A DNA stretch of 51,539 nucleotides, the filler included, from Basidioascus undulatus (Eukaryota), in assembly GCA_000826855.1 (NCBI GenBank). It is 3 parts of 3 records of this genome, joined end to end, with 100 filler letters (N's around TTAATTAATTAA, not from the genome) between each part and the next. Parts side by side here need not be neighbours in the genome. Positions count along the whole stretch, not along the records: positions 14,822 to 36,786 come from JTLS01000703.1; 2 more parts are not named here. One strand, given 5' to 3'. Under the pieces are notes generated by a model. That model was not told the DNA's origin. It made no database searches and saw only the letters and a program-made list of their open reading frames with translations. The stretch's first letter is position 1, and each line of letters opens with the position of its first letter. The position numbers and the translations under genes are program-made. Shown here piece by piece: positions 11,669 through 36,886 of this stretch.

Positions 11669-11986
11669 GTTCGAGCGGACAGCAAGCGGCGGTTGGAAGG
11701 CCGGCGAAGGTGAGATTCCGACAGACAAGCTTAGTAATGACGGCGTTTATGAAGAAATAAGGTCAGTGTATGGCGGTATGCGTGGATGATGGTGGTGGTC
11801 GGAAGGCAACGACTGCGCTGCGATGCTGCCAGTTCCTGTCCGTGTCGAACCGCGGATGGGCGCGGACCAGGTAGGCACGCAGGCCCGTCGCGTGAGATTC
11901 GCGTATGCCATTATTCCTTCCCGCTTCTTCGCGTCCACATCCTCGCTCGTCCTTAATTCTTGCAACGACACAGACGCAGACTCAGA
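11669..11986. promoter_or_regulatory. Putative bidirectional promoter of SFR1/PCH2 with three TCGCGT (MCB-like) boxes
   Basis: About 320 bp between divergent ATGs. TCGCGT at 11888-11893, 11899-11904 and 11929-11934. Confidence 0.45.
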
Positions 11987-14230
11987 ATGGCGACCTCGAA
12001 CGGTCTCAACGGGCACGCCGACTCTGCGCAGCCGACGGACCTGCACTCGCCCCCGCCCCGCAGCGTGCCCGAGTCCTCCGCCTCCAGCTTGTGCACTGCC
12101 CAGCCACAGCCCAAGCGATACGCTGTGCACAGTGCGTGAAATGCGTGAAACAGACTGCTCTATATCAAAACGCACGATAGCTAAAATACTCCCCTATGAA
12201 CTCCCAGTCGAGGTCCGCCTCAACGCGCGCAGCACCGCCCGCTTCGACACCATCCGCCGCGTCGTGGGCACCTACATCCGCGAGAACTTTACGTCCCTCC
12301 CCTGCCCGGGCGACATCGGCGGGTTCGATGACGTCCCTCTCCTCTCTGACAACGTCGACCTCATCCGCGTTACCGAATCCAGTTGCGTCTCTTCCTGCTC
12401 CCTCCCCTCCCTTCTGCGCGTGCTCATCTGGGCGGTGGTGGTCCGAAGCTCTCAACCAGCCGTACCTCCCCCTCCCGCTCCTCGCGCCCCAAATACACGT
12501 CTACCAAACCGCCCACTCGGACTTCCATACCTCACTGGGTGGCCTCGGAGATGACGACGAGGGCGAGGACGGCGCGGGGAACGTCCAGGCTGCGAGCGTG
12601 CTCGAGCTCCCAAGCAGCGGGCTGGAGGGGCTGTGGGACAGCTTGGTCTATGAGGAGGGGATCAAGGGGAAGCTGCTGGACTATATTTATACCACTCTGC
12701 TGTTTTCCGACGGTGCGCTGCTCCTTTTCTCCTCTGGGTGTTGCGGTCCCTGAAGGAAGGGCTAGGACAGCCGACGTCGACTTCAACATCATCTCCTGGA
12801 ATCGGTGGGCTTCGTCTATACCACAACCTTCTCCTCAAACTTAGAGCTGACCTTTCACCCTATCCCCTTCTCCCCCACCAAAGCGTCGTCCTTCTCCACG
12901 GCCCGCCCGGAACAGGCAAGACCTCCCTTGCGCGCGCGCTCGCGCAAAAGCTTTCCGTCCGCCTCTCAGATCGGTGTGTCCCTGACATCTCCCTTCTTCC
13001 CCCTTGCCCCACCCCTCTTCTCTTCCTCTGCTTTCTCTCCCGACGCCCTTCTCACCCCTTCAAACCACCTGACGTGTGTTCGACGCCGGCGGAGGGCAGG
13101 TACACGCACGGCAAGCTGATCGAGATCAACTCGCACTCGCTCTTCTCCAAGTGGTTCTCGGAGTCGGGTAAGCTCGTACAGCGCCTGTTCGGGATGGTCA
13201 ACGAGTGTGTGGACGACGAGGGCGCGTTCGTGGTCGTGCTTATCGGTACGCTCTCTCTTCTCCCTCCCTCGCTCCTTCCTCTAGCGCCTTCATCCTCTTC
13301 TAGATTGTTCATGGGAATGTTGGTGCGAAAACAGATGAAGTCGAGTCCTTGACATCTGCGCGGAAAGCGGCGATGTCGGGCTCGGAGCCATCAGATGCAA
13401 TCAGGGTGCGTTGTCCTGTCTATCATCTCACAGTTCCCTCCCTCAGAAGCAGCCCTGACGACGCGGCGCCGCATCATGCAGGTGGTCAACGCCCTCCTGA
13501 CGCAGCTCGACAAGCTCAAGCACCGCAAAAACGTCCTCGTCATCACCACATCCAACATCACGGGCGCGATCGGTGCGCTTGCCTCCCTCTCCCTCTTTCT
13601 CTTCCTTCTTTCCTTGTCCTCCCGGCCCGGCTGAGATGATATGTGGTGGTGGGTAAACAGATGACGCCTTCATCGACCGCGCGGACATCAAGCAGTACAT
13701 CGGCCTCCCGCCCCAGCGCGCTGTATACTGGATTTTGGCGTCCTGCTTGCGCGAGCTGAGACGCGCTCGGATCGTTTCGGGCGCTGTGCGTGTCCTTTAT
13801 CCTTTTCCTTCCTTCCCGCGGAGATCAGATTCTGAATACGAGCAACCACGGACGTGAGCGCAGGACGTCCTCGACTGGCCGCACGTCGAACTCCTCCAAG
13901 CAGCGGGCGGCGCACCGCCCGCAGACCCAGACGGGTCGAAGCGCCTCTCGCTGCGTCTCCATTGGCTCGCGGGGAAATGTCAAGTACGTTCCATTCCCCC
14001 ATTCCCCTCGTCTTCCCTCCTCGCCTCTTCGGTAACTTGGTTGACGACGATGGCGTACGCAGGGCATGTCAGGCCGCACGCTTCGCCGCCTGCCCGTCCT
14101 CGCGCACGCGCGGTACATCGGTCTCGACGTCGACGGCGCGGGGGCGGACGCGGAGATGTGGGTAGAGGCGATGGGACGGTGTCTGGCGGATGAGGAGGTG
14201 CAGAGGGAGTTTGTGGAGAGGGGCGGCTGA
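11987..14230 (+). CDS. PCH2: Pachytene checkpoint AAA+ ATPase Pch2/TRIP13
   Basis: 'LEGLWDSLVYE', '[30 protein letters not shown]', 'LIEINSHSLFSKWFSESGKLV', Walker B LIDEVESL (spliced), 'DAIRVVNALLTQLDKLK', 'DAFIDRADIKQYIG', 'GMSGRTLRRLPVLAHA'. Stop at 14228-14230. Confidence 0.95.
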
Positions 14231-14721: not shown

Positions 14722-14821
14722 NNNNNNNNNNNNNNNNNNNNNNNNNNNNNNNNNNNNNNNNNNNNTTAATTAATTAANNNNNNNNNNNNNNNNNNNNNNN
14801 NNNNNNNNNNNNNNNNNNNNN
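14722..14821. other. Assembly gap with artificial six-frame stop linker
   Basis: N44-TTAATTAATTAA-N44, identical in design to the second gap. Confidence 0.97.
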
Positions 14822-14920: not shown

Positions 14921-15949
14921 CGGAGTAGTGCTGCTTGGAGGAATGGGGAAAGAGATGGACAATTTATTACAGCTACGTCCTGTTATAACAGTAGTGCTCC
15001 GCTGCTGGGCGTTGGAATGGAAGGGTGCAAGACCGCATGCGGGCGGTGCAGCACGGCTAGCACGGTACAGTCGCTTCAGGAAGCTCTCGCTCCGGCTGCG
15101 GTGGGAACCCGCCCACAGGTCGCCCGATTCAGAAGCGTTGCATATTATCCCGGATCGGGGTGGGGCGACATCGCCAGAGCTCTACCGTTTCGGGGGAACA
15201 GTCGGCGAGGCAGCCGGCAGCGACGGAGGAGTGTCCAAGGGGCGGGAAGGCATGGGGCCGGCAGCGGCAGCGGAAACAAATGCTCGGTCACTGCGCGTAA
15301 TGGCTTGTTGTATGCGTCCGCTAGACGACACAATAGAGATTTGGGAATCTGGCCTTGCAGACACTGCCAGTGCGCTGTGCCAAAGACCGCCATCCACCGT
15401 CCCAGAACGTGACAGCCAGCTGGATGCGACGAAGAGGCGCTACGGACGATTTTTCAGTCATTAACGTCCGACTCGGACTTCCAAAGGGACCCGAGTAAGT
15501 CCTTCTTATGTTATGTATTCAGCTGCACGATGAACATGCAATGAGGATCGCTGTCGATCGTGGCATGGTGACTGTGGCCTTTCGCGTCCGATGCCAACAC
15601 GCAAGCTACCTGTCCCGACTCCAAACATCAGAACCTCAAACAGCTTCTTCAGCTGAGTAAAAATTTTACAGGATATCTTTGGTGGAGACTGCGCTGAATT
15701 CTTCATTTTTTTCGACACTTGCGAGTGGCTTACGGAGTCACCCGCGGATCCGTCAAGGATGCCCCACAGGATGCCCCACACTCGCAGCGTCGCTCAGCTC
15801 GCTTCGGTCGCTCGCTCGCAACGGTCTTCATCCGCCTCGACGTCCCTCTTCCCACAAAACTGACCTCGTTACCGCTTCCTTCATCTACTGACCACATTCG
15901 TCCTTGTTCACTCACCTTCGACTCGTTTACGAGTCCCCATCGATCGAAG

Positions 15950-18900
15950 CTGTCTCTCATTCGTTCATTTCGAGTCGCGGCGCGCGTCGCCGCCGTGCCC
16001 TCGTTCGGCTTGCGCGGCTACGCTAAGGCCAAGGGCCCGGCGTTCTATGCGGTGGTAAATGGAAGAGAAGGTTCTAAAATATATAGAACATGGTAAAGCT
16101 GTCCGTTGTTGTGATTGAAAATGAACGTGATCCGCTCACGCTGTACGGAACTTACAGGGACGAAGCAAAACCGAATGCAAGCTGAATCTTTCGAAAGATC
16201 ATATCGGGAGACTAACGATAGTCGTATACTCGACATTCAGATCATACACTTCCGTTCGACGAAACACCGCAAGTTCCCCACGTTCGAGGAAGCGCAGGCT
16301 TTCATCAAACGCGGTGAGCTTTCTCGAGGCCAGCGCGACAGCCCACCCGACACTTGGGTTGTACCAAGGCTCATTTGCTTGGCGGATATTCAGGAGGAGT
16401 GCGCACGCCCGAGGAAGAAGCGGCGACGGACACTAAGATTGCCAAAAAGGAGCCCCGCATGGCCGCGAACTTCAGGTCGCCGCCCGCTGCCGTCCAGGTG
16501 AACTCCTCGCCCCGATCAGCCCTTGAAGCCTCGCCATGGGTATGGTCCATTAACCGAGCGGCGTCCGCCGAGAAAGCATCTCCGCACATTCCCTCTCCTC
16601 CCAATGTCGTATCCCCCCATCAATCTCACGCCCCTCGCAGCTCCTCCCCTGCTTGCACCGCTTTCCCCGCTCGCGCTCCTGCTCCTGCTCGCACTCCTAA
16701 ACCTGCAAAATCTCTGCCGCCATTCGAAATCGTGCGTACCGGTACCATCCATCGCATATCACTACTTTTGATTAACCCTGCGCTACAGCCGGAGCTATCT
16801 AAGGAACAGCAGCGCGTGCTCGACAGCATTATGGAAACCGGCGAGAGCACCTTCTTCACCGGATCCGCGGGTGCGTTTGAGGAACAATGTGAAAAAACGA
16901 GCGCTCATCTCGAATCCGTCTAGGTACCGGCAAATCTGTTCTTCTTCGGGCGATCATCAACGAGCTGCGAGCGAACTACGGCCACGATGCCGTTGCGGTC
17001 ACAGCAACGACCGGAGTTGCTGGGCAACAGGTGCGTGCTCCCCCTGGCATCCAGAAGCAGGCCGCATAGCTGACTCTTACGAACAGCTACGAGGAAGCAC
17101 TGTCCATACTTTCGCAGGTAGACTGCTTGACTTCCCACGACGCTGAGTCTGCGCTGATGAGGTCCGCTTCAAAGGCATCGGGCTGGGCAAGGGCTTCGCA
17201 CGTGAACTTTACAGGGCCGTACGTGATAACAAGAAAGCGGCGGCCAACTGGCGAAGAATCAGAGCGCTAGTCATCGACGAGAGTGAGCTACAATTTCATA
17301 GCAAACATTGCGCGCAGTTGCTCAGCTTTACTACTCCCTCACAGTTTCTATGTTGAATGCGGAAACGTTTGACAAGCTCGAGTACGTCGCACGAAAGATC
17401 AGGAAGAAGGACGCTCCCTTCGGCGGTATGTCTTGCGATCTTTTCACCATTTGGATAATCCTCTCACGCGGCTCAGAGCAGGTCTACAGCTCATCCTCGC
17501 CGGTGACTGGCTGCAATTGCCTCCAGTTATGCGGGGCATCGAGCCCGCCAGGGTGTTCGCGTTCGAGGCGGTAAGCTGGCACGAAGTGGTCAAGCACGAG
17601 TATCGTCTAGAGCAGGTCCATCGCCAGGCTGATCCGAGTGCGCACCTCTCATACTCTCACCCCGCCAGCGCTCTGCTGACTACCATCATTTAGACTTTGT
17701 CCGAATTTTGAACGAGACGCGGTTAGGCGAGCTTAGCCAAGAAGCGATCGAGGTGTTCCACTCGTTGGAGCGTCCGGTCAGCGATTCAAGCGATGGCACG
17801 CCTGTCGTCGAGCTGTACGTAAATCTTCCGCAGTCGTAGTAGATGTCATTTACGCTTACACCGCCCACGCTGCTCGCAGGTATCCGTTGCGAGTCGAGGT
17901 TGCCGCTTCCAACCGTGCCCGCTTGAATGTAAGCTCGCGTCGGCTCATAGCTGAGCTTTACTCTGACTGTTTTCAGGCTCTTCCCGGAGAGCCACGTACA
18001 TTCGAGGCGCAGGATATTGTCTACGCGTGGGGGTGGGATTCGAGCGCCGCAACAAGACGCTTGGACAGCGAGACGGTCGTGCCTCGTTCGTTGTCGCTCA
18101 AAGTCGGGGCGTCTGTGATGTTGGTCAAGGTGCCCACTCTTCCGCTTGATTGCGTGCAATAGAAAATCTTATACCGGCGCCGCAGAATTCGCCAATCGAC
18201 AAGCTCGTCAACGGCTCGCTGGGAGTCGTGACCTCTTTCGTCAAGTTCGATGCGCTGCGCGGACCAACGGACGCGGAGACAGGCAGGCCGGTTCAGGTCT
18301 TCAGCTCCATAGGTCCAGGTCGCGGAATCCGGACAATGTTCGGCCAGACGCCCCCGAGCGATGGGATTTTTCCTATTGTGCGGTTTTCGCACGGAAAGGA
18401 GATGGTCATTCTGCCGTCGGACTTCATCTGTACGGACGCGCTGGGAAACGAGCTCGCTGCGCGGATGCAGGTGTGTATGAGGTGCTTTGTCCGTCCTGCC
18501 TTTTAACGTGCTGACACAGTCTATCACGCAGGTTCCGCTTGTTTTGGCGTGGGCTTGGGTTGGTAGACCGGCAGTCTGCTCATGGCAGAAACGCATACTG
18601 ACAGCGCAGACGCTCTTTTGTTGCAGTCCATACACAAAAGCCAAGGACAAACGATCGAGCGCTGCAGAATCAACTTGACCAATGCATTCGAGCGGGCGCA
18701 GGGGTACGTCGCTCTCTCGCGCGCGACGGCGCTCGATACTTTACAAGTGACCGGCTTTCACCCCTCGTATGTCATTCCACATCTATACTCTTTATGAATC
18801 ACCAGCGCTTACCAAGTGTCGTAGTAAAATCTCGGCCCATCCTCGCGCGCTCGCTTACTTCACTACGGAACGGCCGACGGAGGAAGAGATCGCTGGGTCC

Positions 18901-19020
18901 GCCTTGGCGCGTCGCCGGAGGGAGAAGGAAGAGGATATGGCTGCTCTGCGCGCATCTATAGAGGATGATGAGAGGGTGATGGCGGCTCGGGTCCGAAGAA
19001 AGGACGCTTGGGTCGATTGA
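15950..19020 (+). CDS. PIF1: Pif1-family 5'-3' DNA helicase with an N-terminal RNase H1-type hybrid-binding (Cauli_VI-like) domain; start codon uncertain
   Basis: Spliced motifs: FFTGSAGTGKS, AVTATTGVA, TVHTFAGIGLG, LVIDE.SML, PFGGLQLILAGDWLQLPPV, VHRQAD, LKVGASVMLVKN, LVNGSLGVV, QVPLVLAWAWSIHKSQGQT, YVALSRA. The N-terminus has FYAVVNGREGSKIYRTWDEAKPNIIHFRSTKHRKFPTFEEAQAFI. Confidence 0.93.
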
Positions 19021-19397
19021 GGTTATCGCTTGGCGTAGACGTACAGACGTTTGCAAGTCCATCGTGCAGCGCGGGTGTGCTTGTTTTGCCAGTCCCGCTG
19101 GACCATTTCGATGAAGAGTACTGCTACATATCAGCGCTCTCCTTTATCTTCAAGAAATGCAAGGTTGTGCGGTGGTCGGCAAACTCAAGTGATGTTTCAG
19201 AGCTTCGAAACAAAGTCTGCACACGACTATCGTCTCAAAAAGCGACTGCGATTCAGATCAATACCTTTCAACCGGGACCAACAAACCAATTTATTCCGGT
19301 TGTGAACTAGGATGGGCGAAGCATGGTGAATGCAGAAGAAGCCTCTCGTAAGACAGTGGACGGCACCGGCCTGCAGCCTATAGTCGGGCGACGACCC

Positions 19398-21144
19398 TCA
19401 CGCGTATGTTGCACTGAGACGCTGAACCTGTGCACCATCTGGTAAATTGCTTTATCCTGGAGGTCTCAAGCTCTCCATCAATCTAACACGTACAATGTAG
19501 TCCTCCGTCTTAACCGCAGGGTACTTCGGCGTGCCGGTGTTTGGCATCGCGGAGACGACGGTGTCTGAAATAGAAAAGAACTTCAGACTCGAAGGACAAC
19601 ACGTAGTGAGACTGCGGTACTGACCCATGTTGGGGTTCGAAAAGAACGCAATCGACTGCCTCGCGGGTGTCAGGGGGGCGGTGCCGGTGGGAGGCTGCAC
19701 GACGCGGTGCACCGTCGACCGGATCACGTCGTTGGACCTGTGCAACGCTTCTCAGATTCAATAAGAAAAGGAAGGCACCGAAGCCTAGGGATCACCAGCG
19801 AGAGAGGAGGTCCCCTGCGTTGATCACGATGGTGCCAGGGACCGGTGTAGCCGGGACCCAAGCGCCAGTCGTGGGGTGCACGACTGAAAAGAAGAGCGAA
19901 AGGATGAGCACGCAGTGGGCGTAACGCGGACACAAGGAAAGGGTACCTTCCAGTCCACCAACTGAATGCTGGAACAGTAGAGTGACCTGGTTTGAATAAG
20001 GAACGTCAGACTTTTGTCTGTACTCGGAAGATAGCGCAGTTTAGTCACAGTGCCTGTGCGATCAAAACCGGTCAGATCCTGCATTGTTTCGTAACTCGCG
20101 GAAGTGGCACTGGGGCTCACCATAGTCAGAATGCGATCCAGCGCGGCTTTGTCCGCCTTCGAGCAGACGACGGTCGATAGGAGGGTAGTAGAGAAGGCGA
20201 AGGTTGTGGTCGCCGATGTTGCACCGTTCGTCGAAGTACGCTAAAAACGCGGTACCCGCCCGGTAAGTGCTTACTCTTGGGGGGGCTCGGAAAGCTTCGT
20301 ACCGGGATCGAATTCCAGACCGGTGGCGATCGAGCGAAGGAGCTGGAGCTGGAAGGTATGGCATGTCTGAAAGAAGGCATTCATGGCTGCACAGTTCGTC
20401 AGCCGTCGGACGGCAAATACTCCGCGGGTCAGGCGAAACACACTGTTCTTAAAGTCTGGGCACTCCTCCTCTTTCGGCCACATGTTCTTCCAAGTGGGAG
20501 CGTCATCCCGACCGATCTCCCTGTTCACAAAAAAAATAAACTGATGAGAAAAATCGCCCACGCAGTGGAAAGCAGTCAGCAGCCTCACATGCTCTCCTTC
20601 GCGTCCGGACTACTCGCACGTAACGCCATAACCTCCTCCTTCGAGTAGATCTGACTGACCTGTAAGCAGTAGAAGTCTGTTCAAGCATCGGATAGCAACG
20701 CTCGATAACGATTAAGTACCTTCTCCCGCCCGGTCGCGACGTATCCCCTGTTACTCTCAGGCCGCTCCCACTGCAGCCCGTCCTTCACCTCCAGCGGGAG
20801 AGAGAAGAATTTTGCGCTCTGCAAGATGCATTACCGGTCTCAGCTAGAGACATTCACTAGGCGTCGGGCTTTTGTGTGCGGCTCACCTGCGCAAAAGCAT
20901 TCGAGATCGCTTCAGGCGGGATGCCATGGTCGGCGAGGTAGATAAACCCGACGCCCTTGAAGCCCTCGACCACCTGGCGAGACACTTCCTTCTTGTCCGC
21001 CTCGTTCCCTTGGAGGAATCCCTTGAAGGAGATGATGGGGAGCAGGTCGTTGACGGCACCCGACGGAGTCGTCAAACCGCGGCGAGTGAACTGCATGCGA
21101 GTCGCCTGGCTTGCCTGGCGAGCACTGCGACGAAGTGTGAACAT
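19398..21144 (-). CDS. 2-oxoglutarate/Fe(II)-dependent dioxygenase (DIOX_N + 2OG-FeII_Oxy; IPNS/thymine-dioxygenase-like) with a presequence-like N-terminus
   Basis: LPIISF...GVGFIYLADHGIP, LRLLYYP, RAGSHSDYGTVTLLFQ (HxD), GGLEV, PVPGTIVINAGDLLSRWSND, STVHRVV (distal His), RQSIAFF (RxS). Last exon VQRLSATYA*. Confidence 0.9.
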
Positions 21145-21438
21145 GATCGTGAGGTGAATGTCTTCGAAGAAAACGGTACAAGATCAAGGGGATTAAAAGC
21201 ACCAAAGCTCAAGTCCATCGTCAGCGTTGCGCGAACACATTCACATCCGTTATCGTTATCAAACTGAGATAGGCAGTCGTTTCAAGCTCGGGACGATCGG
21301 TACGCGTATGTCCGCGCTCGCCTAAGTCCGCCCGCACCGCCGTCGCCAGCTTGTCCACGCCTGTTCACCCTCATCCTGCAACCACCATCTTTACCTTAGT
21401 TATCAAACCTTCCAACTCGAAGAACCTCCAGAACTTTC

Positions 21439-29398: not shown

Positions 29399-30442
29399 AT
29401 GGGTCAATCCGGCTCGGTGCTGCTCAACGATCTCGAGCGGAATTCCAACTGCATGTCGCTCCCCCCGCACCCCTAAGCCTTTCCGCCCCATGCGCAGCAC
29501 CCTGACTTACCTGGGGGGGGNGGGGGGGGGGGGGGCGCCGTGCGGCATGCAGTCTCCGCCGCCGAGCTCCAGCGGCTCAAGAAGCGGTTCATGAAGCTCG
29601 ACCGCGACGGCTCAGGCTCGATCGACCGCGAGGAGTTCCTCCAGATCCCCCAGATCGCCAACAACCCGCTCGCGTCCCGCATGATCGCCATCTTTGACGA
29701 GGAGTGCGTCCTGCGCTTGCTGGCGCATACTGAGAGGGGAGGAGGAGGGGCCGTGGCTGACGCTGGCGCTGGCGGGGCTGCAGCGGCGGAGGCACCGTTG
29801 ACTTCCAGGAGTTCGTGGGCGGGTTGAGCGCGTTCAGCAGCAAGGGCGGGAGGGAAGAGAAGCTTCGATGTGCGTCTTCTCTTCATACTCAAGGTGACCG
29901 GAGGCGGTCGTGTGACTGACCACGACTCCTGTTCCCTGCCCCGTCCACCCTCGTTCCCTTGCACCTCGGTCCCTCTCGACCGCATTGGCTCCCGTCCCGC
30001 TCCGCTACATACAGTCGCCTTCAAGGTGTACGACATCGACCGGGATGGGTTCATCTCCAACGGCGAGCTGTTCCTCGTCCTGAAGATGATGGTGGGCAAC
30101 AACCTCAAGGTGCGTTCGCTAGCTCACCTCGACTTGCCAGTGAGCGTGAGGGGTTCTCACGGTTTGGCATACGCGTGACAGGACCAACAATTGCAACAGA
30201 TCGTCGACAAGACGATCATGGAGGGGGACAAAGACGGGCACGTCCGGGTGTGGATCAGGATGTGCTGACCCAAGCTCACCCCTGATCCGCTTCGCAGGGA
30301 TGGCAAGCTCTCATTCGAGGAGTTCACGCATATGGTGGCGGCGACGGTACGTTCGTGCAAGGCGTTGCTGCTTTTTGTCTGACCAGGCTTTGTCTCGCTC
30401 CAGGATATTCTGAAGCAGATGACGCTGGAGGACCTGTTCTAA
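29399..30442 (+). CDS. CNB1: Calcineurin regulatory B subunit
   Basis: MG myristoylation start, [85 protein letters not shown], four EF hands, ending KQMTLEDLF*. Confidence 0.97.
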
Positions 30443-36786: not shown

Positions 36787-36886
36787 NNNNNNNNNNNNNN
36801 NNNNNNNNNNNNNNNNNNNNNNNNNNNNNNTTAATTAATTAANNNNNNNNNNNNNNNNNNNNNNNNNNNNNNNNNNNNNNNNNNNN
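36787..36886. other. Assembly gap with artificial six-frame stop linker
   Basis: N44-TTAATTAATTAA-N44. Confidence 0.97.

Follow-up and report, generated by a model that had tools for sequence, protein, structure and literature searches.

A probable fusion of an RNase H1-type hybrid-binding domain to a Pif1-family helicase in Basidioascus undulatus

Within the window, the whole 51,539-nucleotide stretch of Basidioascus undulatus DNA that was analysed, a plus-strand gene model runs from 16043 to a stop codon at 19018-19020. When spliced by coordinates, it comprises 17 exons and 671 codons (2016 nt) and is open throughout. Its first three exons (16043-16092, 16158-16176 and 16241-16313) join into a 47-residue domain resembling the hybrid-binding domain (HBD) of RNase H1. 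Exon 1 encodes the first beta-hairpin and ends within a conserved Trp codon; the second, a micro-exon of 19 nt, finishes this codon and adds six HBD residues, and the third supplies the C-terminal half with a basic pair and a helix. Exon 4 (16394-16731) specifies a Pro/Ser/Thr/Ala-rich linker (S, T, P and A account for 61 of its 112 residues) that matched no Pfam family and contains an internal in-frame ATG at 16459-16461. The Pif1 helicase part, with its C-terminal tail, occupies exons 5-8 (16789-16870, 16924-17030, 17087-17117 and 17175-17282), exons 9-12 (17345-17425, 17482-17637, 17694-17814 and 17880-17928) and exons 13-17 (17977-18129, 18186-18470, 18532-18558, 18627-18766 and 18825-19020).

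The HBD exons are separated from each other and from the helicase part by three short introns. Intron 1 (16093-16157, GT-AG, 65 nt) has a CTCAC branch motif 19 nt before its acceptor, intron 2 (16177-16240, 64 nt) a CTAAC motif 25 nt before its acceptor, and intron 3 (16314-16393, GT-AG, 80 nt), which joins the HBD to the helicase part, a CTCAT motif 20 nt before its acceptor. Such branch motifs were found in only 7.6% of exon control segments. Leave-one-out splice scores were middling for introns 1 and 2 (6.7 each). That of intron 3 (11.5) was the third-best, tied, of the 16 introns and lies above the 99th percentile of the antisense controls (5881 pairs; 99th percentile 9.9, 90th percentile 4.9). 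Intron 2 is of the rare GC-AG type. Skipping of the micro-exon would place a stop codon at the junction, as deduced from the exon ends rather than from translating the skipped form. The earlier note had located intron 2 exactly and began intron 1 at 16092, one base too early. It had also described a continuous frame from the HBD through a Pro/Ser linker into Pif1, and this frame is indeed open to 19020 once intron 3, which the note had not spelled out, is taken into account; removal of this intron is needed because the frame that retains it stops at 16499-16501.

We then asked what the downstream exons encode by scanning single exons and open reading frames (ORFs) separately against Pfam. Exons 6, 9 and 10 matched PIF1 (PF05970) with 19.8, 16.6 and 20.9 bits at collinear profile positions (33-63, 112-139 and 142-191, respectively). 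Each score lies below the gathering score of 25.9 bits, and their sum, if summing is granted as an inference, exceeds it at 57.3 bits. The Pif1_2B_dom family was matched by exon 13 with 22.1 bits. Exon 9 aligns over all 26 residues with the signature-motif region in yeast Pif1 (E 5.8e-5) and in human PIF1, and PIF1 chains make up all six of its PDB matches (E up to 10). The Pif1 signature motif, which is 23 residues long and lies between helicase motifs II and III, is described as unique to the family (PMC6144812). In the spliced translation, the Walker A motif, motif II and the C-terminal helicase motifs occur in the order of eukaryotic Pif1 proteins, and the 2B domain is present. Human and yeast PIF1 were the best PDB relatives of exons 10 and 16, and exon 10 lies nearest to clusters of PIF1 fragments in the ESM Atlas. 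This computation supports the view that the rest of the protein is a complete Pif1-family helicase, for which 5'-3' unwinding is predicted from the family.

A Helitron Rep-helicase was considered as an identity for the helicase and rejected. Among the 19 PDB matches of exon 16, Helraiser came last (E 0.6), yeast Pif1 reaching 5e-9, and no match to a Rep-type family occurred in the 130 ORFs (stop to stop, 30 amino acids or longer) between 15000 and 21000 on both strands. The neighbours are housekeeping genes. The next gene downstream is convergent and encodes a 2OG-Fe(II) oxygenase. An RNase H catalytic family was likewise found in none of these 130 local ORFs at E up to 0.1. As no RNase H catalytic domain lies downstream of the HBD, the locus is not an RNase H1 gene.

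The identity of the N-terminal module rests on several lines of comparison. The exon-1 piece matches positions 2-17 of the Cauli_VI profile (PF01693; E 0.0053, 17.4 bits) and the exon-3 piece positions 26-44 (E 0.0015, 19.2 bits), with the match starting from position 23 in a longer exon-3 ORF. Scanned separately, each half stays under the Pfam gathering score of 21 bits. The two half-matches are collinear, and the six residues of the micro-exon fill positions 18-23 without a gap. Among the 130 local ORFs, Cauli_VI was matched by two, which are exactly the two HBD exon pieces; a screen of 1651 ORFs across the window found no further HBD copy and returned two self-matches only. A profile built solely from two giant-virus HBDs, both of which exceed the Cauli_VI cut-off themselves (74.9 and 62.7 bits), gave 27.1 bits (E 2.4e-7) on the spliced fungal domain and matched none of the 1651 unspliced ORFs in the window. 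The sole PDB match of the exon-1 piece is the N-terminal domain of yeast RNase H1 (1qhk), and that of the exon-3 piece is the human RNase H1 HBD (3bsu). The nearest ESM Atlas neighbours of the exon-1 piece are small Cauli_VI clusters (score 0.90; the family is annotated on 15% of their members); neither this proximity nor that of exon 10 to PIF1 fragments bears on the architecture.

The binding surface of human RNase H1 is reported to comprise Trp43, Lys59 and Lys60 (PMC6846478). In the fungal module, the Trp is kept at the exon 1/2 junction, the second HBD half follows it at a spacing of 8 residues, equal to that of human RNase H1, and the Lys59-Lys60 position is occupied by Arg-Lys. The residue aligned with human Phe58 is His. 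The collinear Cauli_VI halves, the RNase H1 HBDs returned as PDB matches and the E value of the viral profile support by computation that the module is an RNase H1-type HBD. The earlier note had assigned this identity, a complete Pif1 core and the absence of a nuclease domain to the protein; all three held up, the core on its signature motif, ordered helicase motifs and closest solved relatives (yeast and human PIF1), and the absence on the lack of an RNase H catalytic domain in all 130 ORFs at the locus.

The composition of the HBD exons was also examined. G or C occupies 3 of 16 third codon positions in exon 1, 3 of 7 in exon 2 and 18 of 24 in exon 3, the fraction in most other exons being about 0.6-0.75. 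The odd, AT-rich third position of exons 1 and 2 was counted against a fusion. Between the acceptor of intron 3 and the internal ATG (16396-16458), codon usage gives +5.6 bits in the fusion frame, as compared with -3.0 bits in the frame that reads through intron 3 and -5.5 bits in the remaining one. The computation supports that HBD and helicase are joined in frame by intron 3, which is canonical, 80 nt long and strong in its splice score, and we consider a real fusion the probable state of this gene.

Upstream of the HBD, a plus-strand frame continuous with its first exon is open for 115 stop-free codons (15698-16042) and may represent 5' coding sequence for a presequence. Its length is only weakly unusual: 115 or more open codons precede 9.5% of the codon positions in the window, and the P derived from composition is 0.067. 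The 38 residues just before the HBD include 8 basic and no acidic ones. No in-frame ATG occurs before the HBD in the open frame at 15698-16093. ATGs at 15759 and 15771 lie in another frame and were rejected, the best intron leading from them to the HBD frame scoring 4.8, under the antisense 90th percentile. The best model with an ATG starts at 15565, with a donor at 15568, an acceptor at 15769 and a 202-nt intron; it scores well, is one of 645 combinations and is unproven. As a speculation, a near-cognate codon such as CTG 15950, with A at -3, could serve as the start. A CT-rich tract (about 15840-15930) may act as a core-promoter element, and transcription would then begin shortly upstream of the HBD. 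Since this draft assembly contains scaffold linkers, a frameshift error at the 5' end is possible.

These features bear on whether HBD and helicase really belong to one protein. If intron 3 were kept, a small HBD-only protein ending at 16499-16501 could be made, with the helicase translated from ATG 16459 and lacking the HBD, or both forms could coexist as isoforms. The in-frame ATG ahead of the helicase core, the lack of an ATG for the HBD-containing form and a read-through frame that stays open for about 60 codons, a basic cluster included, would all fit such an arrangement. Precedent exists as well, for yeast Pif1 and S. pombe Pfh1 are each produced as two isoforms through alternative start codons. 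A nuclear isoform is mentioned in PMC6144812. Against two products stand the splice score and branch motif of intron 3 and a codon usage that favours the fusion frame over the read-through frame. In addition, the two genes would lie on the same strand with an overlap of about 40 nt, and ATG 16459 has C at -3. Taken together, we regard separate products as unlikely. Comparably low is the probability that the HBD exons have become a relic, untranslated or in decay, i.e. 5'-UTR remnants of an old exon capture, with a plain Pif1 made from ATG 16459. The locus would then amount to a standard Pif1 gene whose leader contains a relic. Such decay is compatible with the absence of an upstream in-frame ATG, with the low third-position GC of HBD exons 1 and 2 and with a promoter element within the CT-rich tract. 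It is harder to reconcile with a domain that remains intact over two introns, free of stop codons and frameshifts, and that retains the conserved Trp, the basic pair and the exact Pfam spacing. Nor does it sit easily with the 115 open codons upstream or with the coding-like codon usage between intron 3 and the internal ATG.

Finally, the resemblance to an HBD might be fortuitous or an artefact of splice sites picked with the motif in mind, as the half-matches are short and each lies under the Pfam cut-off. This is very improbable, given that the only Cauli_VI matches among the local ORFs are two collinear ones on the same strand, that the independent viral profile recognises the spliced product and no unspliced ORF, and that all three introns carry branch motifs at odds with the exon control rate. 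Our preferred reading, which we hold with fair though not full confidence, is that the locus encodes one protein with an RNase H1-type HBD, a disordered-looking linker of about 110 residues, a complete Pif1-family 5'-3' DNA helicase and no nuclease. The analysis shows the identities of the domains, the in-frame exons and the missing nuclease domain; we infer the joined transcript, the start codon, hybrid binding and targeting.

The same domain order was looked for elsewhere. Two of the 49 giant-virus Pif1 ORFs scanned place an HBD before Pif1 in one uninterrupted ORF. They lie on IMG/VR GVMAG contigs (L046:242-1855, minus strand, and L051:2082-3761, plus strand), with Cauli_VI and PIF1 matches above cut-off; the HBD-Pif1 architecture thus recurs in nature. 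As in the fungal protein, Cauli_VI is followed by PIF1 and the 2B domain. The viral linkers are shorter (about 30-45 residues, as compared with about 110) and the viral genes are without introns, whereas the fungal gene is intron-rich. The spliced fungal HBD aligns end to end with the two viral HBDs (15 of 45 and 15 of 44 residues identical), the micro-exon stretch included. In the helicase core, the fungal protein shares 28-31% identity with the viral HBD-Pif1 proteins and 33-34% with viral Pif1 proteins that have no HBD. Because the former are no closer than the latter, there is no sign of recent transfer.

Searches for homologous proteins identified no fungal relative that could show conservation, with no match among 80 candidates for exon 14, 14 for exon 16 and, even at E up to 10, 18 for the exon-1 piece. 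A phmmer search with exon 14 against 1.84 billion representatives gave two weak matches, a 108-aa fragment (38% identity) and a 1375-aa repeat protein that looks spurious and was discarded; exon 14 is a poor query, being a variable 2B insertion. A scan of metagenome contigs with exon 10 yielded a sole locus (L001), a bacterial cytochrome oxidase operon with a chance match to one peptide pattern, which was likewise dismissed. No paper describing a Pif1 that carries an HBD was found in the literature searched. A Pleurotus helitron is reported to contain a captured Cauli_VI gene that is not fused to the helicase (PMC4289320).

The predicted protein was also compared with characterised ones. With the Pif1 proteins of S. 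cerevisiae (5o6b/8xak), human (6hph/5fhh) and S. pombe (Pfh1), it shares the SF1B core, the signature motif, the 2B domain and an N-terminal region that is variable and of low complexity. To our knowledge, the N-terminal regions of the Pif1 proteins studied so far contain no folded nucleic-acid-binding module, whereas that of the fungal protein has an RNase H1-type HBD. With eukaryotic RNase H1, it has in common the layout of an N-terminal HBD, a long flexible linker and an enzyme module, as well as the Trp and basic pair of the binding surface, with His in place of human Phe58. The enzyme module is a helicase in one case and an RNase H nuclease in the other. RNase H1 has a mitochondrial presequence, which the basic, acid-free stretch before the fungal HBD resembles. 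The same small domain is attached to yet other effectors in caulimovirus P6/TAV, a translational transactivator, and in bacterial RNase LS-type HEPN proteins, although partner domains and lineages differ from those of the fungal protein. On such effectors, the domain has been interpreted as targeting to RNA in DNA-RNA duplexes (PMC3710099).

These likenesses suggest how the fungal protein might act. The HBD would anchor it on RNA:DNA duplexes, for example R-loops, Okazaki or mitochondrial primers, or the hybrid of telomerase RNA with the telomere, and the tethered Pif1 motor could then load onto adjacent single-stranded DNA and strip the RNA strand. This would parallel RNase H1, whose HBD and linker raise the local concentration of that enzyme on hybrids, except that the hybrid would be unwound and not cleaved. 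RNA:DNA hybrids are efficiently unwound by Pif1 helicases in vitro, and in yeast these helicases suppress R-loop damage. Suppression by PIF1 helicases of R-loop damage at tRNA genes is described in PMC5413955.

A bolder reading, which we offer as tentative and rather unlikely, is that a non-nucleolytic equivalent of RNase H1 has evolved in a cellular eukaryote, in which HBD and flexible linker serve a Pif1 motor rather than a nuclease. The HBD would perhaps be isoform-specific. The long form, made from a spliced-in or non-AUG start and bearing the basic, acid-free presequence, might carry the HBD into mitochondria, and ATG 16459 would give rise to an HBD-less form. In mitochondria, RNA primers and R-loops govern the replication of mtDNA. 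As the viral order is the same and the helicase similarity is no closer, the fusion would have more than one origin.

The recurrence of this domain order in giant viruses suggests that the combination of HBD and Pif1 is useful rather than accidental. If true, an HBD-Pif1 protein would be a natural precedent for the engineered HBD fusions used as R-loop probes, and the existence of a natural Pif1 equipped with its own hybrid reader would constitute genetic evidence for hybrids as a selected target. Should the non-nucleolytic reading hold, the protein would serve as natural 'Rosetta stone' evidence for RNA:DNA hybrids as a primary substrate of Pif1 in vivo.

The identity of the RNase H1-type RNA:DNA hybrid-binding domain (HBD; Pfam Cauli_VI, PF01693) was examined by comparing its exon pieces with Pfam and the PDB, and by applying an independent profile of viral HBDs to the spliced domain. 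The exon-1 piece (16043-16092) matched positions 2-17 of the Cauli_VI profile (E 0.0053, 17.4 bits) and the exon-3 piece (16241-16313) positions 26-44 (E 0.0015, 19.2 bits), the family cut-off being 21 bits. As the exon-1 match ends at 17 and that of a longer ORF around exon 3 begins at position 23, the six residues of the micro-exon (16158-16176) occupy positions 18-23 without a gap. In a control scan of both strands of 15000-21000 (130 stop-to-stop ORFs, minimum length 30 aa), only two ORFs matched Cauli_VI, exactly those of HBD exons 1 and 3. Against 177,635 PDB sequences, the sole match of exon 3 was the human RNase H1 HBD (3bsu, E 0.87) and that of exon 1 the yeast RNase H1 N-terminal domain (1qhk, E 0.98), E-values that are weak because the queries have only 23-24 residues. 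The conserved Trp lies 8 residues from the start of the second half, the same spacing as in human RNase H1. According to PMC6846478, the human hybrid-binding surface consists of Trp43, Lys59 and Lys60, and W43A abolishes binding. The fungal domain keeps the Trp and has Arg-Lys at Lys59-Lys60, whereas His replaces Phe58.

The strongest test was a profile built from two giant-virus HBDs alone: among 1652 sequences it detected the spliced fungal domain at E 2.4e-7 (27.1 bits) and matched none of the 1651 unspliced ORFs of the window, even at E 10. The spliced domain aligned end to end with both viral HBDs, micro-exon included, with identities of 15/45 and 15/44 and one 1-residue gap. The collinear half matches and the viral-only profile thus agree with the earlier note, which had recognized an RNase H1-type HBD here, and we regard both domain identity and micro-exon splice as established in silico. 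Third codon positions are AT-rich in HBD exons 1 and 2 (16043-16176; GC3 of 3/16 and 3/7), compared with 18/24 in exon 3 and about 0.6-0.75 in most other exons. This could be chance in short exons or the trace of a separate origin of the domain.

The helicase part (exons 5-17, 16789..19020, + strand) matched Pfam PIF1 exon by exon and collinearly, at profile positions 33-63, 112-139 and 142-191 (19.8, 16.6 and 20.9 bits), and exon 13 matched Pif1_2B_dom (22.1 bits); in five further exons scanned against Pfam, no family was matched at an E of 1 or below. The nearest solved relatives in the PDB were human PIF1 for exon 10 (1.3e-7) and yeast Pif1 for exon 16 (5.3e-9). Exon 9 aligned along its full length with the signature-motif region of yeast and human PIF1, all six of its matches being PIF1 chains. 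In PMC6144812, this motif is described as 23 residues between motifs II and III, exclusive to the Pif1 family. A Helitron helicase was rejected, as Helraiser ranked last of the 19 PDB matches to exon 16 (E 0.6). By these comparisons the Pif1 core read by the earlier note appears to belong to a bona fide Pif1-family gene.

A 17-exon model, with junctions read off the sequence and checked by coordinate, runs from 16043 to the stop codon at 19018-19020 (2016 nt, 671 codons) with no interruption of frame. Its 16 introns measure 48-80 nt and are all GT-AG except for one GC-AG (intron 2, 16177-16240). Splicing the first three exons (50, 19 and 73 nt) reproduced exactly the domain sequence quoted in the earlier note. 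Its junctions stood only in part: intron 1 (16093-16157) begins at 16093 rather than 16092, and an extra intron, intron 3 (16314-16393), must also be removed before the linker (exon 4, 16394-16731). Removal of intron 3 is required for in-frame passage into the linker, and its retention leads to a stop at 16499-16501. Skipping of the micro-exon would, judging from the exon ends, create a stop codon at the junction. In the read-through of intron 3 (16314-16501), the HBD frame extends some 60 codons further and crosses a strongly basic cluster similar to a nuclear localisation signal; an HBD-only isoform via intron 3 retention is conceivable.

The proposed join of the HBD to the helicase lies at intron 3. 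Its leave-one-out splice score was 11.5, compared with 9.9 at the 99th percentile of 5881 antisense control donor-acceptor pairs, and is one of the highest in this gene. Of the 16 introns, 14, including introns 1-3, have a CTNAY branch motif at a distance of 8-45 nt upstream of the acceptor, compared with 7.6% of 2000 equally sized exon segments used as controls. The stretch from the intron-3 acceptor to the first internal ATG (16459), 21 codons long, shows coding-like usage in the fusion frame (+5.6 bits), compared with −3.0 bits in the read-through frame and −5.5 bits in the third. A separate HBD gene on the same strand would overlap the helicase gene, the distance from HBD to helicase motifs being too short otherwise. 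Nor is there an RNase H catalytic domain as an alternative partner for the HBD: such a domain occurred in none of the 130 ORFs of 15000-21000 (both strands), in line with the earlier proposal that the protein lacks a nuclease domain. Possible points against the join are the splice scores of introns 1 and 2 (only 6.7 each) and the AT-rich third positions of HBD exons 1 and 2. On balance, we consider it likely that HBD and Pif1 form a real, translated fusion. The earlier observation is confirmed. The architecture is well supported in silico, and the interpretation placed on it earlier is partly supported.

Upstream, the HBD frame stays open for 115 codons (15698-16042) with no in-frame ATG in that interval; open runs of at least this length are only weakly unusual (9.5% of codon positions in the window; P 0.067 from composition). 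ATGs at 15759 and 15771 start a 34-codon frame (15759-15860), out of frame with the HBD exon; in this frame Arg, Ser and Ala are abundant, and codon usage is good (+3.4 bits, GC3 of 0.74). An intron linking it to the HBD frame was rejected (best splice score 4.8). The frame may represent an upstream ORF or else the true start, shifted by an assembly frameshift; as this is a draft assembly, a single-base error in the region is conceivable. A model in which an ATG at 15565 directly precedes a donor, with a 202-nt intron and an acceptor at 15769, scored well, but it is one out of 645 that were tried. Of the 38 residues immediately preceding the HBD, 8 are basic and none is acidic, which by composition alone would suit a mitochondrial presequence. 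A CTG at 15950 has A at −3, and fungal mitochondrial isoforms with non-AUG starts are known.

The surroundings are an intron-dense eukaryotic, fungal-looking chromosome segment with housekeeping genes, long neighbouring ORFs matching ATG14, DUF1688, TrmE and mitochondrial carrier in Pfam. Directly downstream, the convergent gene at 19455-21183 (− strand), with DIOX_N and 2OG-FeII_Oxy matches on several minus-strand ORFs, encodes an ordinary 2-oxoglutarate/Fe(II) oxygenase. The gene at 11790-13349 (+), upstream of the HBD-Pif1 gene and on its strand, has an AAA ATPase P-loop as well as a TRIP13 N-terminal domain and resembles meiotic checkpoint ATPases of the Pch2/TRIP13 type. The filler at 14722-14821 and 36787-36886 takes the form of two identical N44-TTAATTAATTAA-N44 constructs, flanked by C-rich homopolymer-like sequence, which look like the six-frame-stop scaffold linkers of a draft assembly; a single N stands at 29521. 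Since about 1.2 kb separates the first construct from the HBD downstream of it, DNA before 14722 need not be contiguous with the HBD-Pif1 gene.

Single-exon queries retrieved no fungal orthologues, which reflects the limit of such queries and is not evidence of absence. Searching IMG/VR with a degenerate pattern of a conserved Pif1 motif gave 113 stretches, 80 of them with flanks, and 113 ORFs from these loci were similar to the spliced fungal protein (E of at most 1e-5). Among the best 49 of these 113 ORFs, to which the Pfam scan was applied, two carried Cauli_VI followed by PIF1 in a single uninterrupted ORF, all matches lying above cut-offs: L046:242-1855 (−; Cauli_VI 5-47, 74.9 bits; PIF1 90-295) and L051:2082-3761 (+; Cauli_VI 28-71, 62.7 bits; PIF1 101-306). 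Both come from giant-virus MAG contigs, and neither ORF matched a glycosylase family in Pfam at E up to 1e-5. Screening of all 2684 ORFs of the IMG/VR loci with a three-sequence HBD profile revealed no additional HBD. The fungal helicase core shares 28-31% identity with these HBD-bearing viral Pif1 proteins, compared with 33-34% with HBD-less viral ones. Nothing in these sequences indicates a recent virus-fungus transfer, and more than one origin of the fusion is probable. Other Pif1 fusions were seen among the scanned viral ORFs: a 2129-aa ORF (L016:126-6512:+, IMG/VR) joins a NADAR domain (499-634) to a PIF1 helicase (779-961), and two more contigs encode a C-terminal HTH_40 (L014) or HRDC domain (L067). 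A 2471-nt metagenome contig, L001, was rejected as a relative; it carries a bacterial cytochrome c oxidase operon and was fetched through one 8-residue exon-10 peptide pattern, a chance match to its subunit III.

The HBD of RNase H1 attaches to RNA:DNA duplexes, and a flexible linker holds the catalytic domain on its substrate; Pif1 helicases translocate 5'-3' on DNA. From this established behaviour of the two modules, we propose that an HBD placed in front of Pif1, with a linker of about 110 residues in between, would raise the local concentration of the motor at hybrids, and that these would be unwound rather than cleaved. The hybrids targeted could be R-loops, primers, the telomerase RNA-DNA duplex or mitochondrial replication intermediates. 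The internal in-frame ATG (16459) could additionally yield an HBD-less form. According to PMC5413955, R-loop-linked damage at tRNA genes is suppressed by PIF1 helicases. Our literature search found no paper on a Pif1 with an accessory hybrid-binding domain, and the architecture may already be present, unremarked, in domain databases. The gene would encode a Pif1 helicase equipped with an additional hybrid-reading module, an architecture that has counterparts in giant-virus contigs.
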